Shown here in pieces: positions 5,685 through 22,424 of a DNA stretch of 64,000 bases (within the stretch, counting starts at the first letter, position 1; the number at the start of each line of letters is the position of its first letter). The stretch comes from a bacterium. Lineage in GTDB: Bacteria > Hinthialibacterota > Hinthialibacteria > Hinthialibacterales > Hinthialibacteraceae. Location of the stretch: positions 1,280,001 to 1,344,000 of the forward strand of contig CAXXMV010000008.1 in NCBI GenBank assembly GCA_963662285.2, read 5' to 3'. A program made the translations under genes and the position numbers. The notes under the pieces were generated by a model. The model saw only the letters and a program-made list of their open reading frames with translations, ran no database searches and had not been told where the DNA came from.

Positions 5685-5878
5685 AGTTTCAGATTACGTT
5701 TAATACGCTCATAAATTGGAGATAGATATTGTTTAGTTATTCATTGAATTTAATTACAAAAATACATAATTTTGTGTGGTATTTTTGCCGCAAACAGGAA
5801 CAAGCCCAGTTATATTTATGTGGTGGATTCATTCATTAGTAACACTAATAACGCTATTTTTGATTTTAACTTGATTCC

Positions 5879-5914
5879 CATGGGGCGGTTTTAACCCTGG
5901 AAAACCGCTCCATG
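5879..5914 (+). promoter_or_regulatory. Stem-loop upstream of PC4-like gene
   Basis: CATGGGGCGGTTTT-AACCCTGG-AAAACCGCTCCATG, 14-bp stem with one G-T pair. Confidence 0.6.
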
Positions 5915-5941
5915 AGTCGGAAAAAGGAGGTTAAAAAGAAA

Positions 5942-6265
5942 ATGAACAATCGACATGAACCGGTATACAGCAAAAAATCTGGCCGATTTCAGGTCAGTGT
6001 ATGGAAGAATAAAAAGGTTATTCGGAGTGCGCGCTATCATGACACCTACTTTGTGAACGATAATAGGCGTTGCATTCAATTCAATCGATACAATCAGCAC
6101 GCAGGAATGTGGGACCAGCAGAAAATTTTTTGCCGGGAGAAAGATGTTTTTAATCTTGCGCAATTGATTGGTCCGCTTTGCGGAATAGAATCTTCGCGCG
6201 CATCCAAGAAGGTTTTTGATCGGCTCAAGTACGACCAAAGCCTGGATTTTTTTATTGATAATTAA
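5942..6265 (+). CDS. PC4-like putative ssDNA-binding protein, paralog 2
   Basis: AGGAGG RBS; PVYSKKSGRFQVSVWK...CIQFNRYN...W..Q.IFC; clear paralog of 6936..7211. Confidence 0.6.
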   Translation: MNNRHEPVYSKKSGRFQVSVWKNKKVIRSARYHDTYFVNDNRRCIQFNRYNQHAGMWDQQKIFCREKDVFNLAQLIGPLCGIESSRASKKVFDRLKYDQSLDFFIDN

Positions 6266-6328
6266 TCATCCTCTCACTGGTAGTTCTCAATAGAAGAGAG
6301 AACCACCAATGAGCGTGTTATCTGGAGC

Positions 6329-6724
6329 GTGATGAAAATGAAACCAACCTTAGAGCACTATGTGACGCAAACACCAATGAAGAAATATCTGTCAGACAAT
6401 TTCCACACAGAAGAAAAACAATTTCCATCTCCTGCTATAGGTTATAAAATATTTACTCAGCACAAAAGAGAATTTGCCTCTAGTCCACTCGAACAGAGAA
6501 CATCTCAACGCGGAAAAGATTTCCTAAAATTAAGGCATTGCGCTTTGCTCCATAAATTTCTTGTTAAAATATTAACGGAGCATCTTCAAGAGAAAATGAT
6601 CGGAGAGCCCGATCAAATAAATTTTGAAAACATAATTTTTGATCTGCATATAGCCAAAAGAGGTCTTAAAATAATTGAGCGATTATATCGTGAGTTGGGA
6701 TTGCCGATCGAGAATGAGAAATAA
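6329..6724 (+). CDS. Hypothetical protein (helical C-terminus)
   Basis: ORF with GGAG RBS; weak resemblance to 10962..11228. Confidence 0.55.
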   Translation: MMKMKPTLEHYVTQTPMKKYLSDNFHTEEKQFPSPAIGYKIFTQHKREFASSPLEQRTSQRGKDFLKLRHCALLHKFLVKILTEHLQEKMIGEPDQINFENIIFDLHIAKRGLKIIERLYRELGLPIENEK

Positions 6725-6870
6725 TTATCTTAAGGTAATATTTTAAATATTAAAATTATTTCTGTTTTGTCGAATTTTTCTCATCTTTTTTCACTTTTCA
6801 TTTTTTTATGAAATCGCTTCATGTTCTTTGTGTGGTTGTTTTGATTTTTTTCTCGTAGGTTTCCCTCTTA

Positions 6871-11699: not shown

Positions 11700-13804
11700 A
11701 TCGAGTAGGGTAAGGTAGGAAGAACACTCCTACCTTATCCCTCTCACAGAACCGTACGTACGGGCCTCGTATACGGCTCCTGTTGATTCTCCTTCGTTAG
11801 GTCGAAACAGAAATCCCGGTTTGCACAGACGCCATATCAAAAAGGCCTTGTTTCTCCAGCCACTTGTTAGGCATGGAGAGGCTGGATAGTGGGCTTGCTG
11901 CGTTTCTCCACGATCTCATTTTAATGAATTGGAATTCGCCTTTATAGCCTAACTGTCTCAGTCGGCGATGCAGCCTTTTTGGCTTTTTCCACAGACTGAG
12001 TTGTTTGGCCCTTAGGCGTCTCCTGATCCATTTCATCAAGGATTCTAACACTTTTTTGCAATTGGCGATCCTGAAATAGTTGGCGAATCCACGGATCACC
12101 GGATTCAAGTCTTTAATAACTTTTTCCAAATTGACCGGAGAATTGCGCCGGGAAATCTTTCTCACCTTTTCCTTCAATCCTTTGACCTTGTCCTCCTGGA
12201 TGCGCGTATATCTCGTGTGAATTACAACTCCAAGAAATTTCACGCCCATACTACTATGGACAATATGGGTCTTTTGCTGATTGACGGTGAGTTTTAATTC
12301 CCTTTCCAGGTGTGCTGTGGCCTGTTCGCGAGCGTTCTCCGCAGCGCTTTTCGAGCGGGTTAATATCAGGATATCGTCGGCGTAACGCACTATACGGTGG
12401 TTTCGATTTTTCATAAATTTATCGAATTCGTCCAGGTAGATATTGGCGATCAGCGGGCTGATCACTCCACCTTGCGGACTGCCCACCGTACTGGCCTGCC
12501 ATCCTTCATCCGTCATAACTCCACTCTCCAAAAACAGACGAATCAAATGCAAAATGCTTCCGTCCGTAATCCGCTTGCGAATTCCTTGAATGATGAGGTC
12601 GTGATCCAGCGTGTCAAAACATTTCGACAAATCCATGTCGACTACCCATGACAGACCGCCTTCCCGGATAAACATCGACGCTTTGGCTATTGCCTGATGG
12701 CAACTCCGTTTCGGGCGATACCCGTAACTCGACGGGTGAAACTCCGGATCGAAGATCGGTTGCATGATATTCAACAGGGTCTGTTGCACTACCCGGTCTC
12801 GGACTGCGGGAATACCGAGTTTCCTAATCCCGCCATTCGGCTTGGGAATTTCGACTCGTTTGACCGGCTGAGGCCGGTATCTCTTCTCCCTCAGTTCCTG
12901 AGACAACGTCGTGATATTCTCTTCCAAGTTATCAGCGAAATCCTCGATGGACTGCCGGTCTATTCCGGCCGCGCCTTTCGCGGATTTCACCTTCTTGAAT
13001 GCCTCGTACAAGTTTCGTTGCGACAGCATCCGATCATATAAACTGTAGTAGATTCTCACGGCGCTTGTTCCTGCGTTCCCTTCTTTCGTTTTCTGCGCTT
13101 CACTTCCGGTAATTCACTTGGGCGTAGTCGTCTTCTATCCTTCTCAGGCAATGTGCGACTACCGATCCAAGTTACTCCAGAGAGCGGCCAAGAAAAGCAG
13201 ACCACCTTTCACGGTTTACCGCTTTCCAAGAGCCCACGATGGTTTGAGCTCAGTTCCACGTTTCTTACGAGTTCCAAGAACCTTCAAATCAACTTCCTCC
13301 CTTCGCAACTGCAGCGGTTTTTGGCTCGCGGCAGCTCCCGCCGACGATGCGACAGGTCATCCCGGTTTTCTCCTCCAGTCGGTTACCCGCTTTCTCAGGC
13401 CGGGATTTCTGCACTACTACGGATTCATCTGCCACCTCACACCGCTTCGGTCCGCCTTGAGTTTCCTCTTGTACTTTCCTATCCTCTTCGGACTCGTCAT
13501 ATAATGAACCTGCCGATTGGAACGATATGAGGCTTCCCCAGTTACTGACGGTTCCCTGTCAGCAGCCCCACCCTCAATAACGTAACGGGTCTGACCAAGT
13601 ACCGGGCGTCGCGCTATTTTGCACGCTTACCCACCCGCGCCGCCGAATCAGGTTCGCTTGCGCTGTGTGCCGCTCACTTCCTATCGCTTCCTTCAGACCC
13701 CGCAGTTTCCCACAACGCCCTTGCGATTCGGATTGTCTTCCCCTTGGTCGGGGTGACGCCTGTTTCTTTCAACAGGCCGGGTTCGCCCGCTTCGCTGGGC
13801 AAAC
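11700..13804 (-). mobile_element. Group II intron, class C (IIC)-like, apparently full length
   Basis: 5' end GTTTGCCCAGCGAAGCGGGC at 13804; short domain V at 11749-11779; domain VI ending CCTACTCGAT at 11700; inserted 5 nt after a terminator hairpin. Confidence 0.92.
11797..13059 (-). CDS. ltrA: Group II intron reverse transcriptase/maturase, no endonuclease domain
   Basis: GAAGID, RKLGIPAVRDRVVQ, SYGYRP, DLSKCFD, PQGGVISP, YADD, FLG motifs; X domain follows. Confidence 0.97.
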   Translation of the reverse strand: MRIYYSLYDRMLSQRNLYEAFKKVKSAKGAAGIDRQSIEDFADNLEENITTLSQELREKRYRPQPVKRVEIPKPNGGIRKLGIPAVRDRVVQQTLLNIMQPIFDPEFHPSSYGYRPKRSCHQAIAKASMFIREGGLSWVVDMDLSKCFDTLDHDLIIQGIRKRITDGSILHLIRLFLESGVMTDEGWQASTVGSPQGGVISPLIANIYLDEFDKFMKNRNHRIVRYADDILILTRSKSAAENAREQATAHLERELKLTVNQQKTHIVHSSMGVKFLGVVIHTRYTRIQEDKVKGLKEKVRKISRRNSPVNLEKVIKDLNPVIRGFANYFRIANCKKVLESLMKWIRRRLRAKQLSLWKKPKRLHRRLRQLGYKGEFQFIKMRSWRNAASPLSSLSMPNKWLEKQGLFDMASVQTGISVST

Positions 13805-14485: not shown

Positions 14486-16516
14486 TCATGACGTTTTGGG
14501 ATTCAAAAAATTCCATAGCGCGGTCACCTCCAGCCGCCCTGCTAGAATTTCTTTTTTTAGTGATTCATTCTCTTTCAATTTCGGAGTGATTTTTTTCCGA
14601 AATTCATCGTCTTTTGTCACGCAAAAGATACGATCAGCTTTAGTCTTCACACATTCGATTAAATTACTGAAATAATTCGACTGTCCCGTCTCAAACTCAA
14701 TCGCCAAAATGGTTTCTTTATTGAACGCGCAAAGATCAATGAGATGGGAAGAAGGAGCAAGCGCAAATTCTCGTTTGACATCAAAGGCTTTGTTTTTAAA
14801 AAACTTTTCAATGCGATCAACAGCAAAAGCATGAACAAATCCGCCCTTATGGACAGGTTTGTTCAATCCGACTTTTCGCCAACCTTCTGAAGATAATTCA
14901 AAGGCCTTCCAGGGGCCAATTAATTGTTTGACCAAAATCTTTAATGATATGAGTTGTTCAACGCCTTTATTGAACGCGTCGTTACTAATCTCAAGTCGTT
15001 CTTTTAACTCACTGGAATTCAAATACGGATGATTGGCGATTTCGATAAGAATTTTCTTCGCGTTTTCACTAAATTCAGGTTTATCTTTTTCCCGTGTTTC
15101 TTTTTCTGACTGATCCTCTAATGCCGTATAATGGTATTGCTTTTTTCTTTCTTCGTTTTGTTGATCCCATTCCGGCTTATCTACAATGTCGGGATGTTCG
15201 AAGGGGAATCCCTGAAACATGACTGCGCCCTGGCTGCTAGTAGAACTAATAATAAACTGCCCCTCCTGAAGCATGGCAATCTTATTAGCATTTTCGGTTC
15301 TAATACCGAGAAGATGGGTCATAGAAATCGCCATATTAAAATTCTTGGTGTAACCGGTGATTTTGTTTTCGATCGAGGTGATGTATTTGGGATCGACACC
15401 ATCAAGCGTATGAAATGCCATAACAAAGCCGAGCTGATTTTCTCGTGTAAGATTGATTTTGTTGGCGACTGAATCGATCCGATCGCCACTGTGCTTCTCC
15501 ATAAATTCTTGGGCGTCATCAATAATAAACACCCAGAATTTTTTTTCGCGTTCGGGTAAATCCTGGTTATCCAAAATAAATCGATCAGCCAAATGAGTAA
15601 TAATTAATTTTATTTCCTTAACTTGGCCATCACCGTAGTTAACAATAGTTGGACGATCACGCATCGATTCATACATTCCCTGGCGAGCGTGAAATACTTT
15701 ATTTTGTGACCATAGACGGCGTAAAACACTCTCGGCGCTGTCAATGTATTTTTTTTGGTGGGGTTTGACTCCCGGAACCTGGTTTAAAACTTCCTGTAAA
15801 TCGCGGATAGTAGGAAAACCTTGTTTCCGGATGCGTTCTGGCGGCCATTTACACGATAATATATTGACTGCCTCCACTAGAAATCCAATGCTGTTTTGCA
15901 ATGAAAAAATCTCGTGGATGGGAGATACCGCTGCTTGAAACCAGCGAGGAAGGTTTTGATAGTTACTTGATTCAAACAAGGAAAGTCGTAGTTCATCCCA
16001 AAAAAATGTTGTGAAAATTGGGCCACGTTCTCCTACAACGTTTTCGAACTGGTTACGCTTTTTCTGGAAAATAGTCAGGTTAACGCCATGGCACAATAGT
16101 TGCATACATAGATGGCGAAGTAATGTCGATTTTCCCGCACCGGTTCCAGCAAGGATGGCCAGATGCCGTACAATATCGAAACGATTCAAGGCGCAAGGCT
16201 CTTGTGTTTTCATATCCACACCAAGAAAAATTTCTCCAAAAGTTACCGGATCATTCCTTACGATTGGACGAATGAGATTGGGATCATATCCAAAAAGATT
16301 CAATCGCTGGGCGTACTTGATAATCTTTTTGAAAATTGCCAAACTCGGTTTACGCATAAACTGCTTTGCTTTTATGAGCAAATAGTTATTATTTTTTGCC
16401 GCTGGATGGTTGATAATATTTTCAATAATCAATTTCGCTTTTTCCGCATTAAATTCATTAGGAGCACCTTCATTGTTTTGAGGGCGGGAACTATTGTTTT
16501 TATTTTGATTGGGCAT
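14486..16516 (-). CDS. HerA/VirB4/VirD4-superfamily P-loop ATPase fused to wHTH and a PD-(D/E)xK-like nuclease domain
   Basis: RHLAILAGTGAGKS (Walker A); FIIDDAQ (Walker B); HTH-like SSELKERLEISNDAFNKGVEQL; H...E...IDL...AIEFETG. Confidence 0.8.
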   Translation of the reverse strand: MPNQNKNNSSRPQNNEGAPNEFNAEKAKLIIENIINHPAAKNNNYLLIKAKQFMRKPSLAIFKKIIKYAQRLNLFGYDPNLIRPIVRNDPVTFGEIFLGVDMKTQEPCALNRFDIVRHLAILAGTGAGKSTLLRHLCMQLLCHGVNLTIFQKKRNQFENVVGERGPIFTTFFWDELRLSLFESSNYQNLPRWFQAAVSPIHEIFSLQNSIGFLVEAVNILSCKWPPERIRKQGFPTIRDLQEVLNQVPGVKPHQKKYIDSAESVLRRLWSQNKVFHARQGMYESMRDRPTIVNYGDGQVKEIKLIITHLADRFILDNQDLPEREKKFWVFIIDDAQEFMEKHSGDRIDSVANKINLTRENQLGFVMAFHTLDGVDPKYITSIENKITGYTKNFNMAISMTHLLGIRTENANKIAMLQEGQFIISSTSSQGAVMFQGFPFEHPDIVDKPEWDQQNEERKKQYHYTALEDQSEKETREKDKPEFSENAKKILIEIANHPYLNSSELKERLEISNDAFNKGVEQLISLKILVKQLIGPWKAFELSSEGWRKVGLNKPVHKGGFVHAFAVDRIEKFFKNKAFDVKREFALAPSSHLIDLCAFNKETILAIEFETGQSNYFSNLIECVKTKADRIFCVTKDDEFRKKITPKLKENESLKKEILAGRLEVTALWNFLNPKTS

Positions 16517-16534: not shown

Positions 16535-17104
16535 TTATTGATTGGTAATTCGGGGATGATTTAGGTTTTCAGTCAGGTAAGGTTTGATCGCATCCAAGCA
16601 ATCGATCTTATGCACCGCGATCAAACGATTTTGAAACGGAAGTATGATTCCGCAGTACCGGCAAACCTGGTGCATACATGCGCCACAGATTTGATGGGCT
16701 TGTGCACAATTGTTGCAATAAAGCCGTCCGCAGCAGAAACTCATTCCAACGAATTGTTTCTCCGGTTTGTGCAAAATCTTTAAACAGGTTGGACAAAAAC
16801 ATTTTGGACGAACATAGTAACGGGCTTCCCCGCCGTCATTGGTCTGAACGGTCACATGTCCGGTAATATATTCCACCCAGAAGTTATGGGAATAATAAAT
16901 GGGATATATTTCCAGGCTGCTCTCAATAATGAATTGAGGGTCCACACCATAATAATCACAGATCGCTCGAAGATGTTCTCGCTTCAGAACCAAGCGTTTG
17001 GATTGTTTCTGATGATGGGATCTTTGACTCTGGGATGACGCTTCCGCGAACGGTTGTGAGATCCACCTAAGAAAATTCTGTAAATCTTTCCAGGACATAA
17101 TCAA
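16535..17104 (-). CDS. Cys-rich multi-zinc-binding protein
   Basis: CFCPTC...CC...CNNC...CGAC...CRYC...H..C. Confidence 0.7.
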   Translation of the reverse strand: MIMSWKDLQNFLRWISQPFAEASSQSQRSHHQKQSKRLVLKREHLRAICDYYGVDPQFIIESSLEIYPIYYSHNFWVEYITGHVTVQTNDGGEARYYVRPKCFCPTCLKILHKPEKQFVGMSFCCGRLYCNNCAQAHQICGACMHQVCRYCGIILPFQNRLIAVHKIDCLDAIKPYLTENLNHPRITNQ

Positions 17105-17395: not shown

Positions 17396-17983
17396 ATGAA
17401 GGGAGTAATTATTACCATGTCTCAATCCCCAGAAACAATGAACCAAAGCAATCAAGCTCAGTCGATGGATGAAACGATCGAGCAACTTAAAAAAGCAAAA
17501 GAAATGCTCGAATCAAGTTCATCCAGTGATGATTCAGAGGACGAGAAAGCGAGTCTTGATGAGAAAGCGCTTCTATCATTAATCGATTGCTTACTCAAAG
17601 TGTGCAGTCACGTTCGTCTATCGGGACGCGCATTTCTTTCCGTAGCCAATTCACTGCATAAGATCGCCAATTTATCGTCGCCAAAATCGAAAAAACGAGT
17701 TGCGATTGAAGGAATTTTATCCGTACAACTCGCTTCGTTGGGTATGTTGGGATTTGAAACTATAGGCAGTGATGAATGGGAAGGCTCTGAATTGGATCTA
17801 TCCTGCCAACGCGTCCTTGAAAAACTGCCCGCAAATTCCAAGCGACCGCACAAAACTATCGTGAAATTTGAATCTTATGGGTTGAAATTAAACGGCTTGA
17901 TGATTTCACCTGCCGAGGTTGTCGCCGCCATAGATAAAGCTACGCCAAAGGAGAATGAAAACAATGACAATGACTCAGATTAA
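17396..17983 (+). CDS. Divergent GrpE-like nucleotide exchange factor
   Basis: Helical N-terminus; IEGILSVQLASLGM; C-terminal TIVKFESYGLKLNGLMISPAEVV resembles GrpE; overlaps the Hsp70 gene. Confidence 0.7.
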   Translation: MKGVIITMSQSPETMNQSNQAQSMDETIEQLKKAKEMLESSSSSDDSEDEKASLDEKALLSLIDCLLKVCSHVRLSGRAFLSVANSLHKIANLSSPKSKKRVAIEGILSVQLASLGMLGFETIGSDEWEGSELDLSCQRVLEKLPANSKRPHKTIVKFESYGLKLNGLMISPAEVVAAIDKATPKENENNDNDSD

Positions 17984-19565
17984 TCAACTCAAACGTTTCA
18001 AAAAAGGTGAGTTTCCTGTTGATCCTTATACTTGCTTTCTTGCCTTTGATTTTGGAAATTCCTCAACCAAGGTAATTCTTGTAAAGATACTTGAGAGCGG
18101 AGAAATCCTCTATCGTTTAGTCTTAGTTGATGGGTGTGAAACCTGCCCAAGCAAAGCCGTGGTGGGACCGGACAATGATTTAGTATTTGGATTAGAGGCA
18201 GTCAATTATATATTGACCGAAATAGTCGCATCGTACTCTGTTGGCAAGGATCAACTAGATCAACCCAATCAACCGAGCATTAGTACAATCGTTGATGCGA
18301 AAGATGCGAAAGATGCGAAAATTTTCAGGTCGCATGATGTTTATCGAAAGTACATAGCGTTTATTTTCGACAAAGTTAGCCAATCTATCGATTATCTGGC
18401 GTATTTGCTTCCTCTTTTCGTTTCGTGCCCCGCAAATTTCTCTTCACGGCAAAAAGGGATTTTTCTTGATACTTTGAAAAAATGTGGATGCGAAAATATC
18501 CTGGGATTAGAAAACGAACCGACTCAGGCATTCAAAAAAATTATCACACAAGAAAATATTCATGGAAATATTCTCATTTATGATATGGGAGGAGGGACAA
18601 CAGATGTTACTCTTGGTTATTATGATCCAGTAAAAAACGAATTTTCCATTCTTGAATCGCAAGCCTGTTCGATCGCTGGACATGATTTCACGCATATCAT
18701 TACCAATGAAGTTATCCAGAGACTTTTTCAAGGTGAGTCAATAGATCCATGTGTGAATACAAAGATTTTTTATGAAGCCGAAGCCGCCAAGGAATTTCTT
18801 TCTGAAAACATAAACGCTCCCATGTTGCTTCCGTATGGAAAGGATATTATTCCATTCGAATTTAGCCGTGATCTTTTTGAGTCGCTCTCAGCCGAAAAAC
18901 AAAGCAAAATTCTGAGTGAAATAGACCGGGTAATTAATGCGGGAAAACTCAATCATTCTCAGATTGATTTTGTCGTCATCACTGGTGGAGCGACTCTGAC
19001 TCCTTTTGTGCGCCGAGAAATCACGCAACATCTGCCTAACGCCCGGCCAATCTACAGTCATGCTCCATTATTCGATGTTGTTCAGGGAAACGCGATCTCA
19101 GGAGTGCATGTCCTTCAGCAAGAAAAGCAGCTAATTCTAAGTGGAATGTACTTGTCCCCTCCGAAAGTACGCAATATTCTTAATCACGATATAAGTATAG
19201 TAGTAACTAACTCCAGTGAAGAATACAAACGTCGCAATTTTTTGCTCATTCCCCAAAAAAAAGAACTTCCTGCTCAGGCTTCTATTTCAAGATTTTGCCC
19301 ACTATATGAAGGGCAAACTGAAGCCCATATACAAATAACAAAAGGGCTTCCTAATTCGGAATACGATCCTAAGGATCTGATTGGTGAAGCGGTTATCCCG
19401 CTCACTCCCGGCAACCTAAAACGAAAAGAACAGGTTGAAATTATCCCGTCCATCGACGAATCCAACGTTGTGACCATTATCGCTCGTGATTTTCTCTCTC
19501 CCAATCCAGAGGATCACGAAATCGTCATCAAACTTGACTATCTTTTGGAGGAAACAGCCGATTAA
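17955..19565 (+). CDS. Divergent Hsp70-family protein lacking the helical lid
   Basis: DFGNSST, CPANF, NEPTQA, YDMGGGTTD, EAAKEFLS, ITGGAT; SBD-beta remnants (GQTEAHIQI, IDESNVVTIIARD). Confidence 0.9.
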   Translation: MKTMTMTQINQLKRFKKGEFPVDPYTCFLAFDFGNSSTKVILVKILESGEILYRLVLVDGCETCPSKAVVGPDNDLVFGLEAVNYILTEIVASYSVGKDQLDQPNQPSISTIVDAKDAKDAKIFRSHDVYRKYIAFIFDKVSQSIDYLAYLLPLFVSCPANFSSRQKGIFLDTLKKCGCENILGLENEPTQAFKKIITQENIHGNILIYDMGGGTTDVTLGYYDPVKNEFSILESQACSIAGHDFTHIITNEVIQRLFQGESIDPCVNTKIFYEAEAAKEFLSENINAPMLLPYGKDIIPFEFSRDLFESLSAEKQSKILSEIDRVINAGKLNHSQIDFVVITGGATLTPFVRREITQHLPNARPIYSHAPLFDVVQGNAISGVHVLQQEKQLILSGMYLSPPKVRNILNHDISIVVTNSSEEYKRRNFLLIPQKKELPAQASISRFCPLYEGQTEAHIQITKGLPNSEYDPKDLIGEAVIPLTPGNLKRKEQVEIIPSIDESNVVTIIARDFLSPNPEDHEIVIKLDYLLEETAD

Positions 19566-19567
19566 AT

Positions 19568-19627
19568 TTCCGGCCCGAATGCCGTCCGGTGAATCCTTCA
19601 ATTCGCCGGACGTGATGCGAGTCAGAA
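19568..19627 (+). other. 60-nt structured intergenic element, copy 1
   Basis: 41/60 identical to 21894-21953, with compensatory base changes. Confidence 0.7.
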
Positions 19628-19651
19628 GAATATTCATTAACAAGAGAAAAA

Positions 19652-20440
19652 ATGAATCCTATATACACCATAACAGATATTCAAATCGCGTTGCAAGTCT
19701 TACGATTTAAGCCGACCGATATCCCCATCGATCCGGCGAAAATTAAGCGGCAAAAATCAGTATGTGTCAATATAATTTCTAGCGATTTTGCGAATGTCAA
19801 TCGCGCCTCTGGAGAGTGGGCGAACAAACAAAAAGAACTGAATGTTGCTTGCGCCATTCTGAATTCCACTTTCACTGTGATCAATGAGAATCCAGACAGT
19901 TATTTTAAAGATCAACCTTGCGCGGATTCTGCTACGCCGCGATCGAATTCTTCTCCGAATTATCAGCGGCCAAATCCAGAATACAACAATCCCCAGAACA
20001 CATCATACGCATATACGCAACCTCAACATGCTCCTCCATTTGAACCAGCTAGTGAGCATTATCAAGACCGAAGGATCATGCTGGCTGCTTCCATCTTTGT
20101 AACAATGATTCTTCTTATCGTTATGGTCTTGTTCAGGCAGCCTTCTGAACCGAAATATGGCTACCTTTATGTCGAAACAATCTTTTCGGAAAAATTTAAT
20201 TCAAAAATGTGGACTTATTTCTCTATCTATAAGAGTGGATTGCGTGGACAGCACGTAAATGACGCCGAGAGCAATCCGGTCGATCCGATCAGATTGCCTG
20301 TCGGCGCATATACATTGGTATTGCGCATCAAGCCAAATCCCTTGCGAATTAAAAACGTCAAGGTTCAACCCAATAAAGTAACACATATCGCCATTCGCGA
20401 TGATCAATATCAATCGAAATATGAGGAGATCAGACCATGA
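19652..20440 (+). CDS. Membrane protein with degenerate J-domain-like N-terminus and a C-terminal beta domain
   Basis: ALQVLRF...AKIKRQ...SSD...KQKELNVACAIL; P/Q/Y-rich linker; one TM; PEGA-like LPVGAYTLVL. Confidence 0.6.
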   Translation: MNPIYTITDIQIALQVLRFKPTDIPIDPAKIKRQKSVCVNIISSDFANVNRASGEWANKQKELNVACAILNSTFTVINENPDSYFKDQPCADSATPRSNSSPNYQRPNPEYNNPQNTSYAYTQPQHAPPFEPASEHYQDRRIMLAASIFVTMILLIVMVLFRQPSEPKYGYLYVETIFSEKFNSKMWTYFSIYKSGLRGQHVNDAESNPVDPIRLPVGAYTLVLRIKPNPLRIKNVKVQPNKVTHIAIRDDQYQSKYEEIRP

Positions 20441-21228
20441 ATAAGATTATTTCCCCAATCCTTCTAACAATCGCAATCATGATGAACACAGGATGTGTGA
20501 TAGTGCCAATCGCTGCTGCCGGTGCTGTTGGATTTCTTGGTGTCGCCATGCACGAACAAGGTAATTCAAATCCTGTGAAAAAGAAACGTTCATCCAATAA
20601 CAAACCGTCTCGTTCCGATGAATTAACGGAATTTAGAATCGTGTCAAGCGAAACGCCATCATACGCAGATCGTCCGGTAGGAACGCAAATACCAAAAGCG
20701 CAGCTTGCAAACATCACAACACTCAAGCCAGTTCAACCACCAGCGGCAAAGAGAAAATTCTCATCCGATTTGAGTTTATTAGAATCCCGTGAAACCAACG
20801 GATGGACGTCTCCAACGAATATTTCATTTGAAGCAGATCCACCAGTCTCTCATAAAACAAACAGTCAGATTGATTACTCTGATGACTCGAATGTGAATGT
20901 ATTTTCACAAGAAGATAGACGAAGCGATCTCTTACAAGCAGAAGAAGATAGAACCAATTTACGTGAAGCCGTTCAGTTGTTTAAGCAGTTCAAGTATGAC
21001 GCTGCCTGTCAGTTACTTGAACGAATCGATCAGCAATTTCTTTCAAACCATGAAAAGGAGGAAACCTTGTTTTACCTTGCTCTTACATCTTTGAAATTGC
21101 GTGAAAAACGAATGGCGCAAAGGTGGTTTTCACTTCTTATTGAAGAAAATCCCCACATTTTATCTTCACCATTAGCGAGGGATTTATCGCCATCGCAAAT
21201 CAGTTTTTTCAAACAAATGTTGTATTAA
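20437..21228 (+). CDS. Lipoprotein with C-terminal TPR-like repeats
   Basis: Lipobox-like NTGC; disordered middle; EAVQLFKQFKYDAA...TLFYLALTSLKL...AQRWF. Confidence 0.7.
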   Translation: MNKIISPILLTIAIMMNTGCVIVPIAAAGAVGFLGVAMHEQGNSNPVKKKRSSNNKPSRSDELTEFRIVSSETPSYADRPVGTQIPKAQLANITTLKPVQPPAAKRKFSSDLSLLESRETNGWTSPTNISFEADPPVSHKTNSQIDYSDDSNVNVFSQEDRRSDLLQAEEDRTNLREAVQLFKQFKYDAACQLLERIDQQFLSNHEKEETLFYLALTSLKLREKRMAQRWFSLLIEENPHILSSPLARDLSPSQISFFKQMLY

Positions 21229-21261: not shown

Positions 21262-21669
21262 ATGACGGATAACAATTTACCAACATTTTACATGACAGAA
21301 GACGAACTCATTCCTGAAGGCGTCTATCAAGCTGAATGCACCAAAGTGGAAAGCATCAAAGAGGGCAGATACATCAAGTTTACTTTCCGAATCTTGGATT
21401 TTAGCCTTGAGAAAAACTTTGCGAATGGACTCTGCGAAACACGAAGCAACCGATCTTCCAGTTTCGTACGCTGGGTTAGAACGCTTTCGGGTATTGAATT
21501 CTCTAAAGACCAATCCTTCAACTTGAATGAGTTGCAGCATGACATTATTGGGAACCATTGCTTTGTTCGGATCAAGCATAAAGAAAAAGACGACCGTGTC
21601 TTTGATAACGTCGTAGCGGTTTATCCGCACGATGATTCGCGATTTATAAAATCGTCAAAGGAGGAATGA
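21262..21669 (+). CDS. DUF669-like phage OB-fold (SSB-like) protein
   Basis: LIPEGVYQAECTKVE...IKFTFRI...DIIGNHCFVRIKH...FDNV. Confidence 0.65.
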   Translation: MTDNNLPTFYMTEDELIPEGVYQAECTKVESIKEGRYIKFTFRILDFSLEKNFANGLCETRSNRSSSFVRWVRTLSGIEFSKDQSFNLNELQHDIIGNHCFVRIKHKEKDDRVFDNVVAVYPHDDSRFIKSSKEE

Positions 21670-21962: not shown

Positions 21963-22196
21963 ATGAGTAATGAGATGAAGAAACAAGGCATCAATCCAAT
22001 ATGTGACGAATCTGATGTTCCTCTCAATATGAATATTGAGCAAGCCGCTCGTTATCTTAATACAACTCCCCGTCAGTTACGTGATCTCGTTCGCGATAAA
22101 ATTATTCCTCATTTTCGTGTTGGACGTTTGGTACGTTTCAACCGAAAAAAACTTGCTGAATGGGTTGAATCACGAATTGAAGAGCCCATCTTCTAG
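21963..22196 (+). CDS. Excisionase-like HTH protein
   Basis: MNIEQAARYL...IPHFRVGRLVRFNRKKLAEWV; next to the att/tRNA. Confidence 0.9.
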   Translation: MSNEMKKQGINPICDESDVPLNMNIEQAARYLNTTPRQLRDLVRDKIIPHFRVGRLVRFNRKKLAEWVESRIEEPIF

Positions 22197-22202
22197 CCTA
22201 AT

Positions 22203-22280
22203 TCAGTCATTTTGATTCCAACTAAAACAGAAAATCAGTCAAAAATCAGTCATTGCAAAAAATCAGTCAAAAATCAGTCA
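22203..22280. repeat. Putative integrase arm-type binding sites
   Basis: AAAATCAGTCA x4 as two tandem pairs (22231-22252, 22259-22280), plus TCAGTCA at 22203. Confidence 0.7.
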
Positions 22281-22351: not shown

Positions 22352-22424
22352 TGGGCCATATAGGAATTGAACCTATAACCTGCCGATTAAGAGTCGGATG
22401 CTCTGCCAATTGAGCTAATGGCCC
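22352..22424 (-). tRNA. tRNA-Lys (anticodon CTT), CCA not encoded
   Basis: GGGCCAT/ATGGCCC acceptor stem, GCTC/GAGC D-arm, CT-CTT-AA anticodon loop, TTCAATT T-loop. Confidence 0.96.

Follow-up and report, generated by a model that had tools for sequence, protein, structure and literature searches.

The Hsp70 of the mitochondrial import motor (mtHsp70) operates with the GrpE protein Mge1, the J protein Tim14 and the J-like protein Tim16, which lacks the HPD motif. A specialised Hsp70, HscC (550–580 amino acids (aa), with a shortened lid), works solely with its own membrane-anchored J-type partner (DjlB/DjlC), makes no use of GrpE and has its ATPase stimulated by DjlC (Mayer 2021, PMC8215388). 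The 'DnaK derivates', with shortened or deleted lids, form a broad class that has been called dark matter (FEBS J 2026, PMC13580251). A theme of HSP70 and GrpE with DnaJ- or TPR-fused partners occurs in the GAP1-N2 GTPase-centric conflict systems, where an alternative theme combines a kinase (with a β-rich domain or transmembrane (TM) helices) with PP2C and vWA; both are argued to act near the membrane (Kaur et al. 2020, eLife, PMC7159879). MAD7–MAD8 is an ATPase–nuclease module needed for MADS defence (PMC13662399). Here we describe a 64-kb stretch (the window) of a contig from a bacterium of the phylum Hinthialibacterota, in which an integrative element carries four adjoining genes for a GrpE homologue, a lidless Hsp70, a membrane adaptor with a J-like N-terminal domain and a lipoprotein-like partner. 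No published description of this operon layout was found in the literature searched.

With a probability of roughly 0.45, we read the four genes as the arm that regulates or senses within a conflict system of six genes, which centres on an NTPase and travels on integrative elements. A role in defence against, or exclusion of, incoming DNA or phage, and not in general protein folding, is held with the same reserve, at a little below even chances.

Gene order and module exchange

Running on the same strand (+) are four open reading frames (ORFs) of 195, 536, 262 and 263 aa (Table 1; the adaptor ORF occupies 19652–20440), of which the first two overlap by 29 nt and the last two by 4 nt. An initial annotation of the window had described them as a tightly linked set forming a four-gene operon. 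The linkage is borne out by the overlapping ORFs and by an order kept across relatives, and the genes are real, but the unit is larger than supposed, because genes for a Cys-rich protein and a mad8-like NTPase adjoin the set wherever that side is assembled.

The relatives comprise a diverged second copy in the same genome (contig C1; L007), loci elsewhere in the phylum (L014, L016, L021 and L022), a kinase-type locus in genome G032 (L074) and a contig-end fragment in a fifth genome (L072). Across a survey of 35 genomes of the phylum, the full-length adaptor profile matches six places in four genomes, the Hsp70 profile (E ≤ 1e-35) finds the identical four, and the NTPase is matched in five; the contig-end fragment retains the adaptor C-terminus, the lipoprotein and a 135-aa gene. 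The operon is thus conserved, as six full loci, with a constant gene order at low sequence identity to the window proteins (26–32% for Hsp70, 19–29% for the GrpE homologue, 15–30% for the adaptor and 31–37% for the NTPase).

Present in G032 is a different cytoplasmic set. The adaptor profile matches the C-terminus of a 549-aa protein of this genome (E 2.5e-7), and the locus reads 184-aa gene, 675-aa NTPase homologue, vWA, PP2C, kinase–TM–C-terminal domain protein, lipoprotein, ParB-like gene and integrase. When compared by hhalign, the 675-aa protein aligns with the window NTPase over 554 columns (probability 99.2%, E 1.1e-19), the C-terminal domain of the kinase aligns with that of the adaptor (87.6%, E 3.5e-6), and the two lipoproteins align with each other (81.5%, E 1.1e-5). 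Given the shared NTPase family, C-terminal domain and lipoprotein, sequence comparison gives good support to the Hsp70/GrpE/J-like and kinase/PP2C/vWA sets being interchangeable cytoplasmic modules on one envelope pair. The kinase/PP2C/vWA variant speaks more for a function in switching or sensing than for one in building a transfer apparatus.

The second copy, L007, has the order integrase, HTH_17, two 127-aa genes, lipoprotein, adaptor, split Hsp70, GrpE homologue, Cys-rich protein and NTPase; splitting its Hsp70 gene is a 663-aa Transposase_29 gene (L007:8378–10369, minus strand, 671 bits). In L016 the Cys-rich gene and that of the GrpE homologue are separated by an inserted AEP-type primase gene (5685–6857; AEP-TOTE, 122 bits). 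Weaker matches comprise one to the adaptor profile on a 2.5-kb contig (G009:C846:1200–2495, L073; E 2e-7, positions 157–315) and several 663-aa ORFs of genome G035 that match the NTPase profile (E 5e-10 to 2e-6).

The lidless Hsp70 and the GrpE homologue

The second protein matches the Pfam Hsp70 model PF00012 with 72 bits (cut-off 20.6) over profile positions 137–498 of 599, and its best matches in the PDB are Hsp70 nucleotide-binding domains (NBDs; 1.5e-15). It fails the NCBIfam equivalogs, scoring 73 bits on HscA (required, 620–709) and 56–64 bits on DnaK (648–1019). In an alignment with two host proteins, DnaK (L004) and a second Hsp70 (L005), the family stops directly after the β substrate-binding domain (SBDβ), with 6–12 residues at the start of the lid. 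The equivalents of the catalytic residues D8, E171, D194, T199 and D201 are retained in all three family members compared, and the lidless Hsp70 with ATPase motifs proposed in the initial annotation is therefore upheld; at K70 the alignment is ambiguous, and an invariant K lies within S[VI]GKD.

Among the positions that receive a J domain, the equivalent of R167 is G in 3/3 members and that of Q378 is S, S and C, whereas P419 is retained; R167 and Q378 have roles in receiving the HPD (Mayer 2021, PMC8215388). The conserved hydrophobic interdomain linker is not retained in the family. Canonical Hsp70 architecture thus fails in lid, linker, R167 and Q378, the residue statements resting on three members.

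An exhaustive profile search of 1.84 billion representatives returns four closer relatives (247–379 bits) and, beyond these, a large class of lidless Hsp70s of about 500 aa, with 257 proteins at E ≤ 1e-30. All 25 of the approximately 500-aa relatives sampled from the best 150 are lidless, with 0–24 residues at the lid start. A search of metagenome contigs with one Hsp70 relative (P0009) found no related loci.

The first protein family is supported by sequence comparison as GrpE-related, in agreement with the earlier GrpE-like assignment. The window member scores 23.3 bits on Pfam GrpE (PF01025), below the 25.8 cut-off, as do two orthologues (23.5 and 20.0 bits), and two others lie above it (34.2 and 35.1 bits). 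Searching the PDB with a profile of five family sequences gives ten matches at E ≤ 10, of which the top six are GrpE structures (4ani, 3.9e-6; 1dkg, 1.7e-5; 3a6m, 2.6e-5; then three mitochondrial GrpE chains at 0.019–0.13). Identity between the window protein and its C1 paralogue is 26% over 110 residues.

Elsewhere in the host genome (G000 C1, ~885–888 kb) is a 424-aa J protein (L020:1468–2742; PF00226, 41 bits) with NPE at the HPD site. It adjoins the second host Hsp70 (596 aa, L005:1126–2916), which retains the R167 equivalent, and by sequence the two constitute another non-canonical Hsp70/J pair.

The membrane adaptor

No match to the adaptor was found in Pfam, NCBIfam, PADLOC, PHROG or the PDB sequences. 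It gives no hit to PF00226 at E ≤ 0.1, a model that finds three other genes only in the genome. A profile of five N-terminal domains (N-domains) finds no J chain among the PDB sequences, a profile of the C-terminal domain finds no meaningful match there, and a Foldseek search of the PDB with the whole adaptor model returns nothing at E ≤ 0.001. In a word-indexed homologue search the adaptor recovers the query alone, and the five-sequence profile recovers the query and the C1 paralogue alone.

In an AlphaFold2 (AF2) model built on a 4-row alignment, residues 1–90 are predicted with confidence (pLDDT blocks of 76–94) and comprise helices 7–16, 28–45, 54–79 and 81–84; following these is a helix at 136–161, and the model gives no fold for the remainder (pLDDT about 30). 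When this N-domain is compared with 48,161 chains, ranks 1–6 are J or J-like proteins, with 2guz at the top. When the five N-domains are compared by hhalign with 14 true J domains of the phylum, 57 columns align in the register expected of a J domain (score 19.3, E 0.0056, probability 6.5%); none of 200 column shuffles reaches this score (mean 9.05, s.d. 1.68, maximum 14.6), and reversal of the profile lowers it to 12.3. Among named language-model clusters, those of DnaJ are nearest (0.79–0.87) and serve as leads only.

The initial annotation had seen here a J-like protein with HPD replaced by SSD, and had made this reading hinge on a J fold at the N-terminus. The best structural matches of the N-domain are J or J-like folds, but SSD is not a conserved replacement. 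None of the five adaptor relatives has HPD, and the residues corresponding to SSD (43–45), located at the end of helix II, read SSD, ANY, NAT, SVQ and SSR. The loop between helices II and III carries the motif F-x-x-V-[ND]-R in 4/5 relatives, and a single TM segment is present in four of the five, the L014 protein having two hydrophobic stretches.

We consider it probable that the N-domain truly descends from a J domain. Well supported is the adaptor as a bitopic membrane protein with a cytoplasmic, J-like N-domain devoid of HPD, and its C-terminal domain is predicted to face the periplasm. The sole match to PEGA (PF08308) is that of the L007 protein, which is weak (13.5 bits, E 0.068).

Predicted contact between adaptor and Hsp70

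Complex prediction with the Hsp70 (3-row alignment) and the adaptor N-domain (5-row alignment) gave an ipSAE of 0.74 (0.71–0.78 over three runs), against 0.00 for the best control. In calibration, the mark for this score was attained by 116 of 157 solved complexes and by 2 of 215 mismatched pairs. The runs share at least 90% of their contacts, and the partner pLDDT is 79.

Contacting the Hsp70 in these models are adaptor helices II and III. They meet Hsp70 residues 57–88 and 277–302, equivalent to residues 29–60 (lobe IB) and 260–291 (lobe IIB) of host DnaK. This surface is the region bound by exchange factors, not the J site formed by R167, the linker and SBDβ. The models support binding of the J-like domain to the Hsp70; of the dedicated pair envisaged earlier, the predicted binding is thus favoured (0.74 against 0.00), and the canonical J contact is not.

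The homologous operons had been put forward as a place to look for changes in HPD and in interface residues. HPD is missing on one side and, on the other, G at the R167 position and S, S and C at that of Q378 fit an abandonment by the pair of the canonical J–Hsp70 contact. Weighing against this argument is that such loss is common among lidless Hsp70s generally, R being kept at the R167 position in only 4/25 of the sampled relatives.

The lipoprotein-like partner

In all five members of the family encoded directly after the adaptor, a hydrophobic N-terminus leads to [GA]-C. A simple lipobox pattern is matched in three of them, and the window protein, which reads NTGC, does not match it. Beyond the N-terminus, a Pro/Ser/Thr-rich linker that varies between members is followed by a helical domain of some 90 residues, which is conserved. 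As regards the TPR lipoprotein of the initial annotation, the TPR signal is weak and sub-threshold, with 16.2, 19.7 and 14.1 bits on PF07719 and similar models (cut-off 27) for the window protein and two of three orthologues, and 18.3 for the lipoprotein of the kinase locus.

The 4-nt overlap of adaptor and lipoprotein genes recurs in L007, L014, L021, L072 and the kinase locus, which suggests that the two proteins are made together. The adaptor C-terminal domain and its translationally coupled lipoprotein are well supported as a conserved pair.

A Gly-rich hydrophobic stretch follows the Cys in 4/5 of the lipoproteins (window 20494–20550, and in L014, L016 and L021). In the window protein, residues 20–38 are the strongest hydrophobic segment, and it could therefore be a signal-anchored protein.

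The NTPase and the Cys-rich protein

The core of the neighbouring NTPase matches the PADLOC model mad8 (E 1.5e-14, residues 96–434) and Pfam DUF87 (25.2 bits); its profile matches PDB sequences weakly (DotL, 0.0058; HerA, 0.011; YjgR; FtsK). The middle is winged-helix-like, and the C-terminal segment contains invariant D594, E607 and E609 and, judged by eye from the sequence, may be nuclease-like. The protein is 37% identical to its counterpart in L007, 31% in L014 and 33% in L016. A search with the NTPase alignment gave no related loci in genome, metagenome or viral contigs. AAA+ families are absent among the scanned ORFs of the window, L007, L014, L016 and L021, and mad8 alone of the MADS set (mad1–mad8) was matched by PADLOC in the eight proteins scanned. 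The Cys-rich protein belongs to no Pfam family and occupies the same position in L007, L014 and L016 (29–36% identity).

The integrative element

Table 1. Positions of the gene set and of flanking features, in window coordinates.
Feature	Position	Strand	Remarks
676-aa P-loop NTPase	14486–16516	−	Likely effector, conserved beside the set; FtsK/HerA/VirD4- and mad8-related core
189-aa Cys-rich protein	16535–17104	−	Several CxxC pairs; directly upstream of the NTPase gene
GrpE homologue (nucleotide exchange factor)	17396–17983	+	Pfam and profile matches
Lidless Hsp70 (NBD and SBDβ)	17955–19565	+	Family-specific N-terminal extension
Adaptor, N-terminal J-like domain (residues 1–90)	19652–19921	+	Model fold and profile comparison; no HPD
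Adaptor, transmembrane segment (residues 142–160)	20075–20131	+	Hydropathy 2.97; within the AF2 helix at 136–161
Adaptor, conserved C-terminal domain	20138–20437	+	Predicted to face the periplasm; also ends the Ser/Thr kinase of G032
Lipoprotein-like protein	20437–21228	+	Variable Pro/Ser/Thr-rich linker, then a TPR-like C-terminal domain of ~90 aa
135-aa conserved element protein	21262–21669	+	Weakly SSB- or replication-initiation-like
HTH_17 excisionase-like protein	21963–22196	+	Pfam HTH_17, 48.6 bits; PHROG excisionase families
tRNA-Lys(CTT)	22352–22424	−	Right-hand attachment site of the element

Carriage on a mobile element, as initially proposed, is supported, the element being integrated at the tRNA-Lys gene. 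The region homologous to the C1 copy and L014 extends from about C8:1273400 to this tRNA at C8:1302352 (window 22352; C8 denotes the contig), about 29 kb. In the left part are genes for a serine recombinase, a MazE-like protein, a DUF5131 protein, a GT4 glycosyltransferase and SSB, and inside the element is a group II intron (window 11710–13715, minus strand), with Rfam matches at 11710–11781 and 13548–13715 and a reverse transcriptase/maturase ORF at 11797–13059 (RVT_1, 143 bits; GIIM, 76 bits).

The 3′ 45 nt of the tRNA-Lys gene have a single repeat, at C8:1137416–1137461 (L053, L060), 165 kb upstream, which adjoins an integrase gene (102.8 bits) and is not part of a complete tRNA. The island may be composite.

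Downstream of the four-gene set are the 135-aa gene (44% identity to the C1 copy; phrog_378, E 7.8e-6; NCBIfam NGO0469 family, 24.3 bits, under its cut-off) and a 75-aa gene. A filamentous phage was considered and dropped, the only pointer being the weak NGO0469/SSB-like match, with neither a Zot nor a coat signature. Scans of the element found no capsid, relaxase, type IV secretion system (T4SS) or secretin signature, and a promoter/terminator scan remained at chance level (14 against 14.5 expected, and 6 against 5.3).

Located between the excisionase-like gene and the tRNA-Lys gene are four direct copies of AAATCAGTCA (window 22232–22280). The whole window contains five copies, against 0.18 expected, and they may be arm-type binding sites for a recombinase or excisionase.

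Possible function and alternatives

The private, envelope-anchored Hsp70 set of the initial annotation is matched by an element-borne GrpE homologue, an HPD-less membrane adaptor and a lipoprotein. As part of a conflict system, such a set could work as follows. By gripping lobes IB and IIB of the NBD, the adaptor would keep the Hsp70 at the inner membrane, the GrpE homologue would reset the nucleotide state of the Hsp70, and the envelope-facing domain with the lipoprotein would provide input or anchorage. The Hsp70 cycle, like a kinase/phosphatase cycle in the variant, would set the activation threshold of the mad8-like ATPase, whose C-terminus may be nuclease-like. A stricter form of this scheme, which we regard as doubtful, is a trans-envelope Hsp70 switch, in which a surface event would be relayed through the TM helix to a J-like domain that clamps the NBD at the exchange-factor site. 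The GrpE-reset cycle would then license the mad8-like ATPase–nuclease, and the module, interchangeable with kinase/PP2C/vWA, would use Hsp70 as a signalling device.

One alternative to the conflict-system reading, and the main idea of the initial annotation, is a core transfer or assembly machine, in which an FtsK/HerA/VirD4-like NTPase moves DNA or protein along a route assembled or gated by the Hsp70 set. We think this unlikely, and what weight it has comes from the place of the system in the element's syntenic core: in every assembled copy it is central and syntenic, among genes of replication and recombination type, small membrane proteins follow the NTPase, the weak PDB profile matches include DotL, HerA and FtsK, and scans of the element recognised no further genes for transfer. 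To be set against these points are the lack of any relaxase, T4SS, capsid or secretin signature, an NTPase that by eye has no TM segment, the PADLOC mad8 match, and the exchange for kinase/PP2C/vWA in the other element type, which belongs to a regulatory or conflict grammar. A different objection concerns the adaptor, whose N-domain could be an unrelated small helical tether, or a BAG-like exchange factor or clamp on the NBD, instead of a diverged J domain. The J and J-like chains at the first six of 48,161 ranks, with no BAG entry among the matches listed, an in-register alignment that beats all 200 shuffles, and the DnaJ language-model clusters make this quite unlikely.

Lambda, P1 and F remodel their initiators with host DnaK, DnaJ and GrpE, and an element could bring its own Hsp70 and GrpE for the same task. 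The set adjoins the SSB- or rep-like 135-aa gene and, in L016, the AEP primase (122 bits); such a helper nevertheless leaves the membrane anchor, the envelope domain, the lipoprotein and the kinase variant unaccounted for, and we hold it to be improbable. Least probable, and hardly to be expected, is that these are decaying, functionless paralogues. Decay is certainly seen, in the insertion sequence of L007 and the broken Hsp70 frame of L021, so that the Hsp70 gene is disrupted in 2/6 full loci, and in the truncated NTPases of L015 and L016. Yet long intact frames with retained catalytic residues persist at 21–32% identity between genera. Two near-identical copies in one genome (L021 and L022) yield, from small counts, ratios of non-synonymous to synonymous rates (dN/dS) of 0.05 for the Hsp70 C-terminus (five synonymous changes, one non-synonymous) and 0.29 for the adaptor (six and six), below the value near 1 that the initial annotation had associated with decay. 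The ratio is 0.88 for both the lipoprotein (1 synonymous, 3 non-synonymous) and a 100-aa gene (1.5 and 4.5), from only 4–6 changes each, too few to interpret.

Comparison with known systems

To our knowledge, MADS does not include an Hsp70. The NTPase core described here matches the mad8 model and so resembles MAD7–MAD8, but no further MADS gene accompanies it among the eight PADLOC-scanned proteins. As in HscC–DjlB/DjlC, the Hsp70 has a private membrane partner of J type; the set differs in having no lid on its Hsp70, a GrpE homologue of its own, no HPD, and an adaptor that extends into an envelope-facing domain. The import motor has both a true J partner, which is absent here, and a channel, which is not known here, and the weak structural match to 2guz does not establish common descent.

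The GAP1-N2 systems are likewise membrane-proximal, NTPase-centred operons with both alternative themes and with Zn-ribbon elements accompanying the NTPase. General Pfam scans, in which dedicated models were not applied, recognised no DO-GTPase, GAP1 or FNIII-repeat protein here. The NTPase is instead FtsK/HerA/mad8-like, the J-like domain is without HPD and continues into a TM segment and another C-terminal domain, the TPR part belongs to a lipoprotein of its own, and the loci lie on integrative elements of another phylum. The resemblance appears confined to the alternative themes.

The Hsp70 itself is a member of the largely unstudied lidless class of 'DnaK derivates', for which the available excerpt of the review (PMC13580251) mentions neither a mobile-element context nor an operon that joins GrpE to a J-like membrane adaptor and a lipoprotein. 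Such lidless proteins are common and almost unstudied, and this one comes with a complete conserved context, in which it is accompanied by a dedicated exchange factor, a membrane adaptor, an envelope partner and an NTPase that is the likely effector, and which has a natural variant with a kinase/phosphatase/vWA set in place of the chaperone set. That exchange on the envelope module is a testable clue to an Hsp70 cycle used as a regulatory switch, and docking of the J-like domain at the exchange-factor site, if the predicted complex is true, would be a new mode of Hsp70 control. The HSP70–GrpE theme of predicted conflict systems is thereby extended to another NTPase, another phylum and integrative elements.

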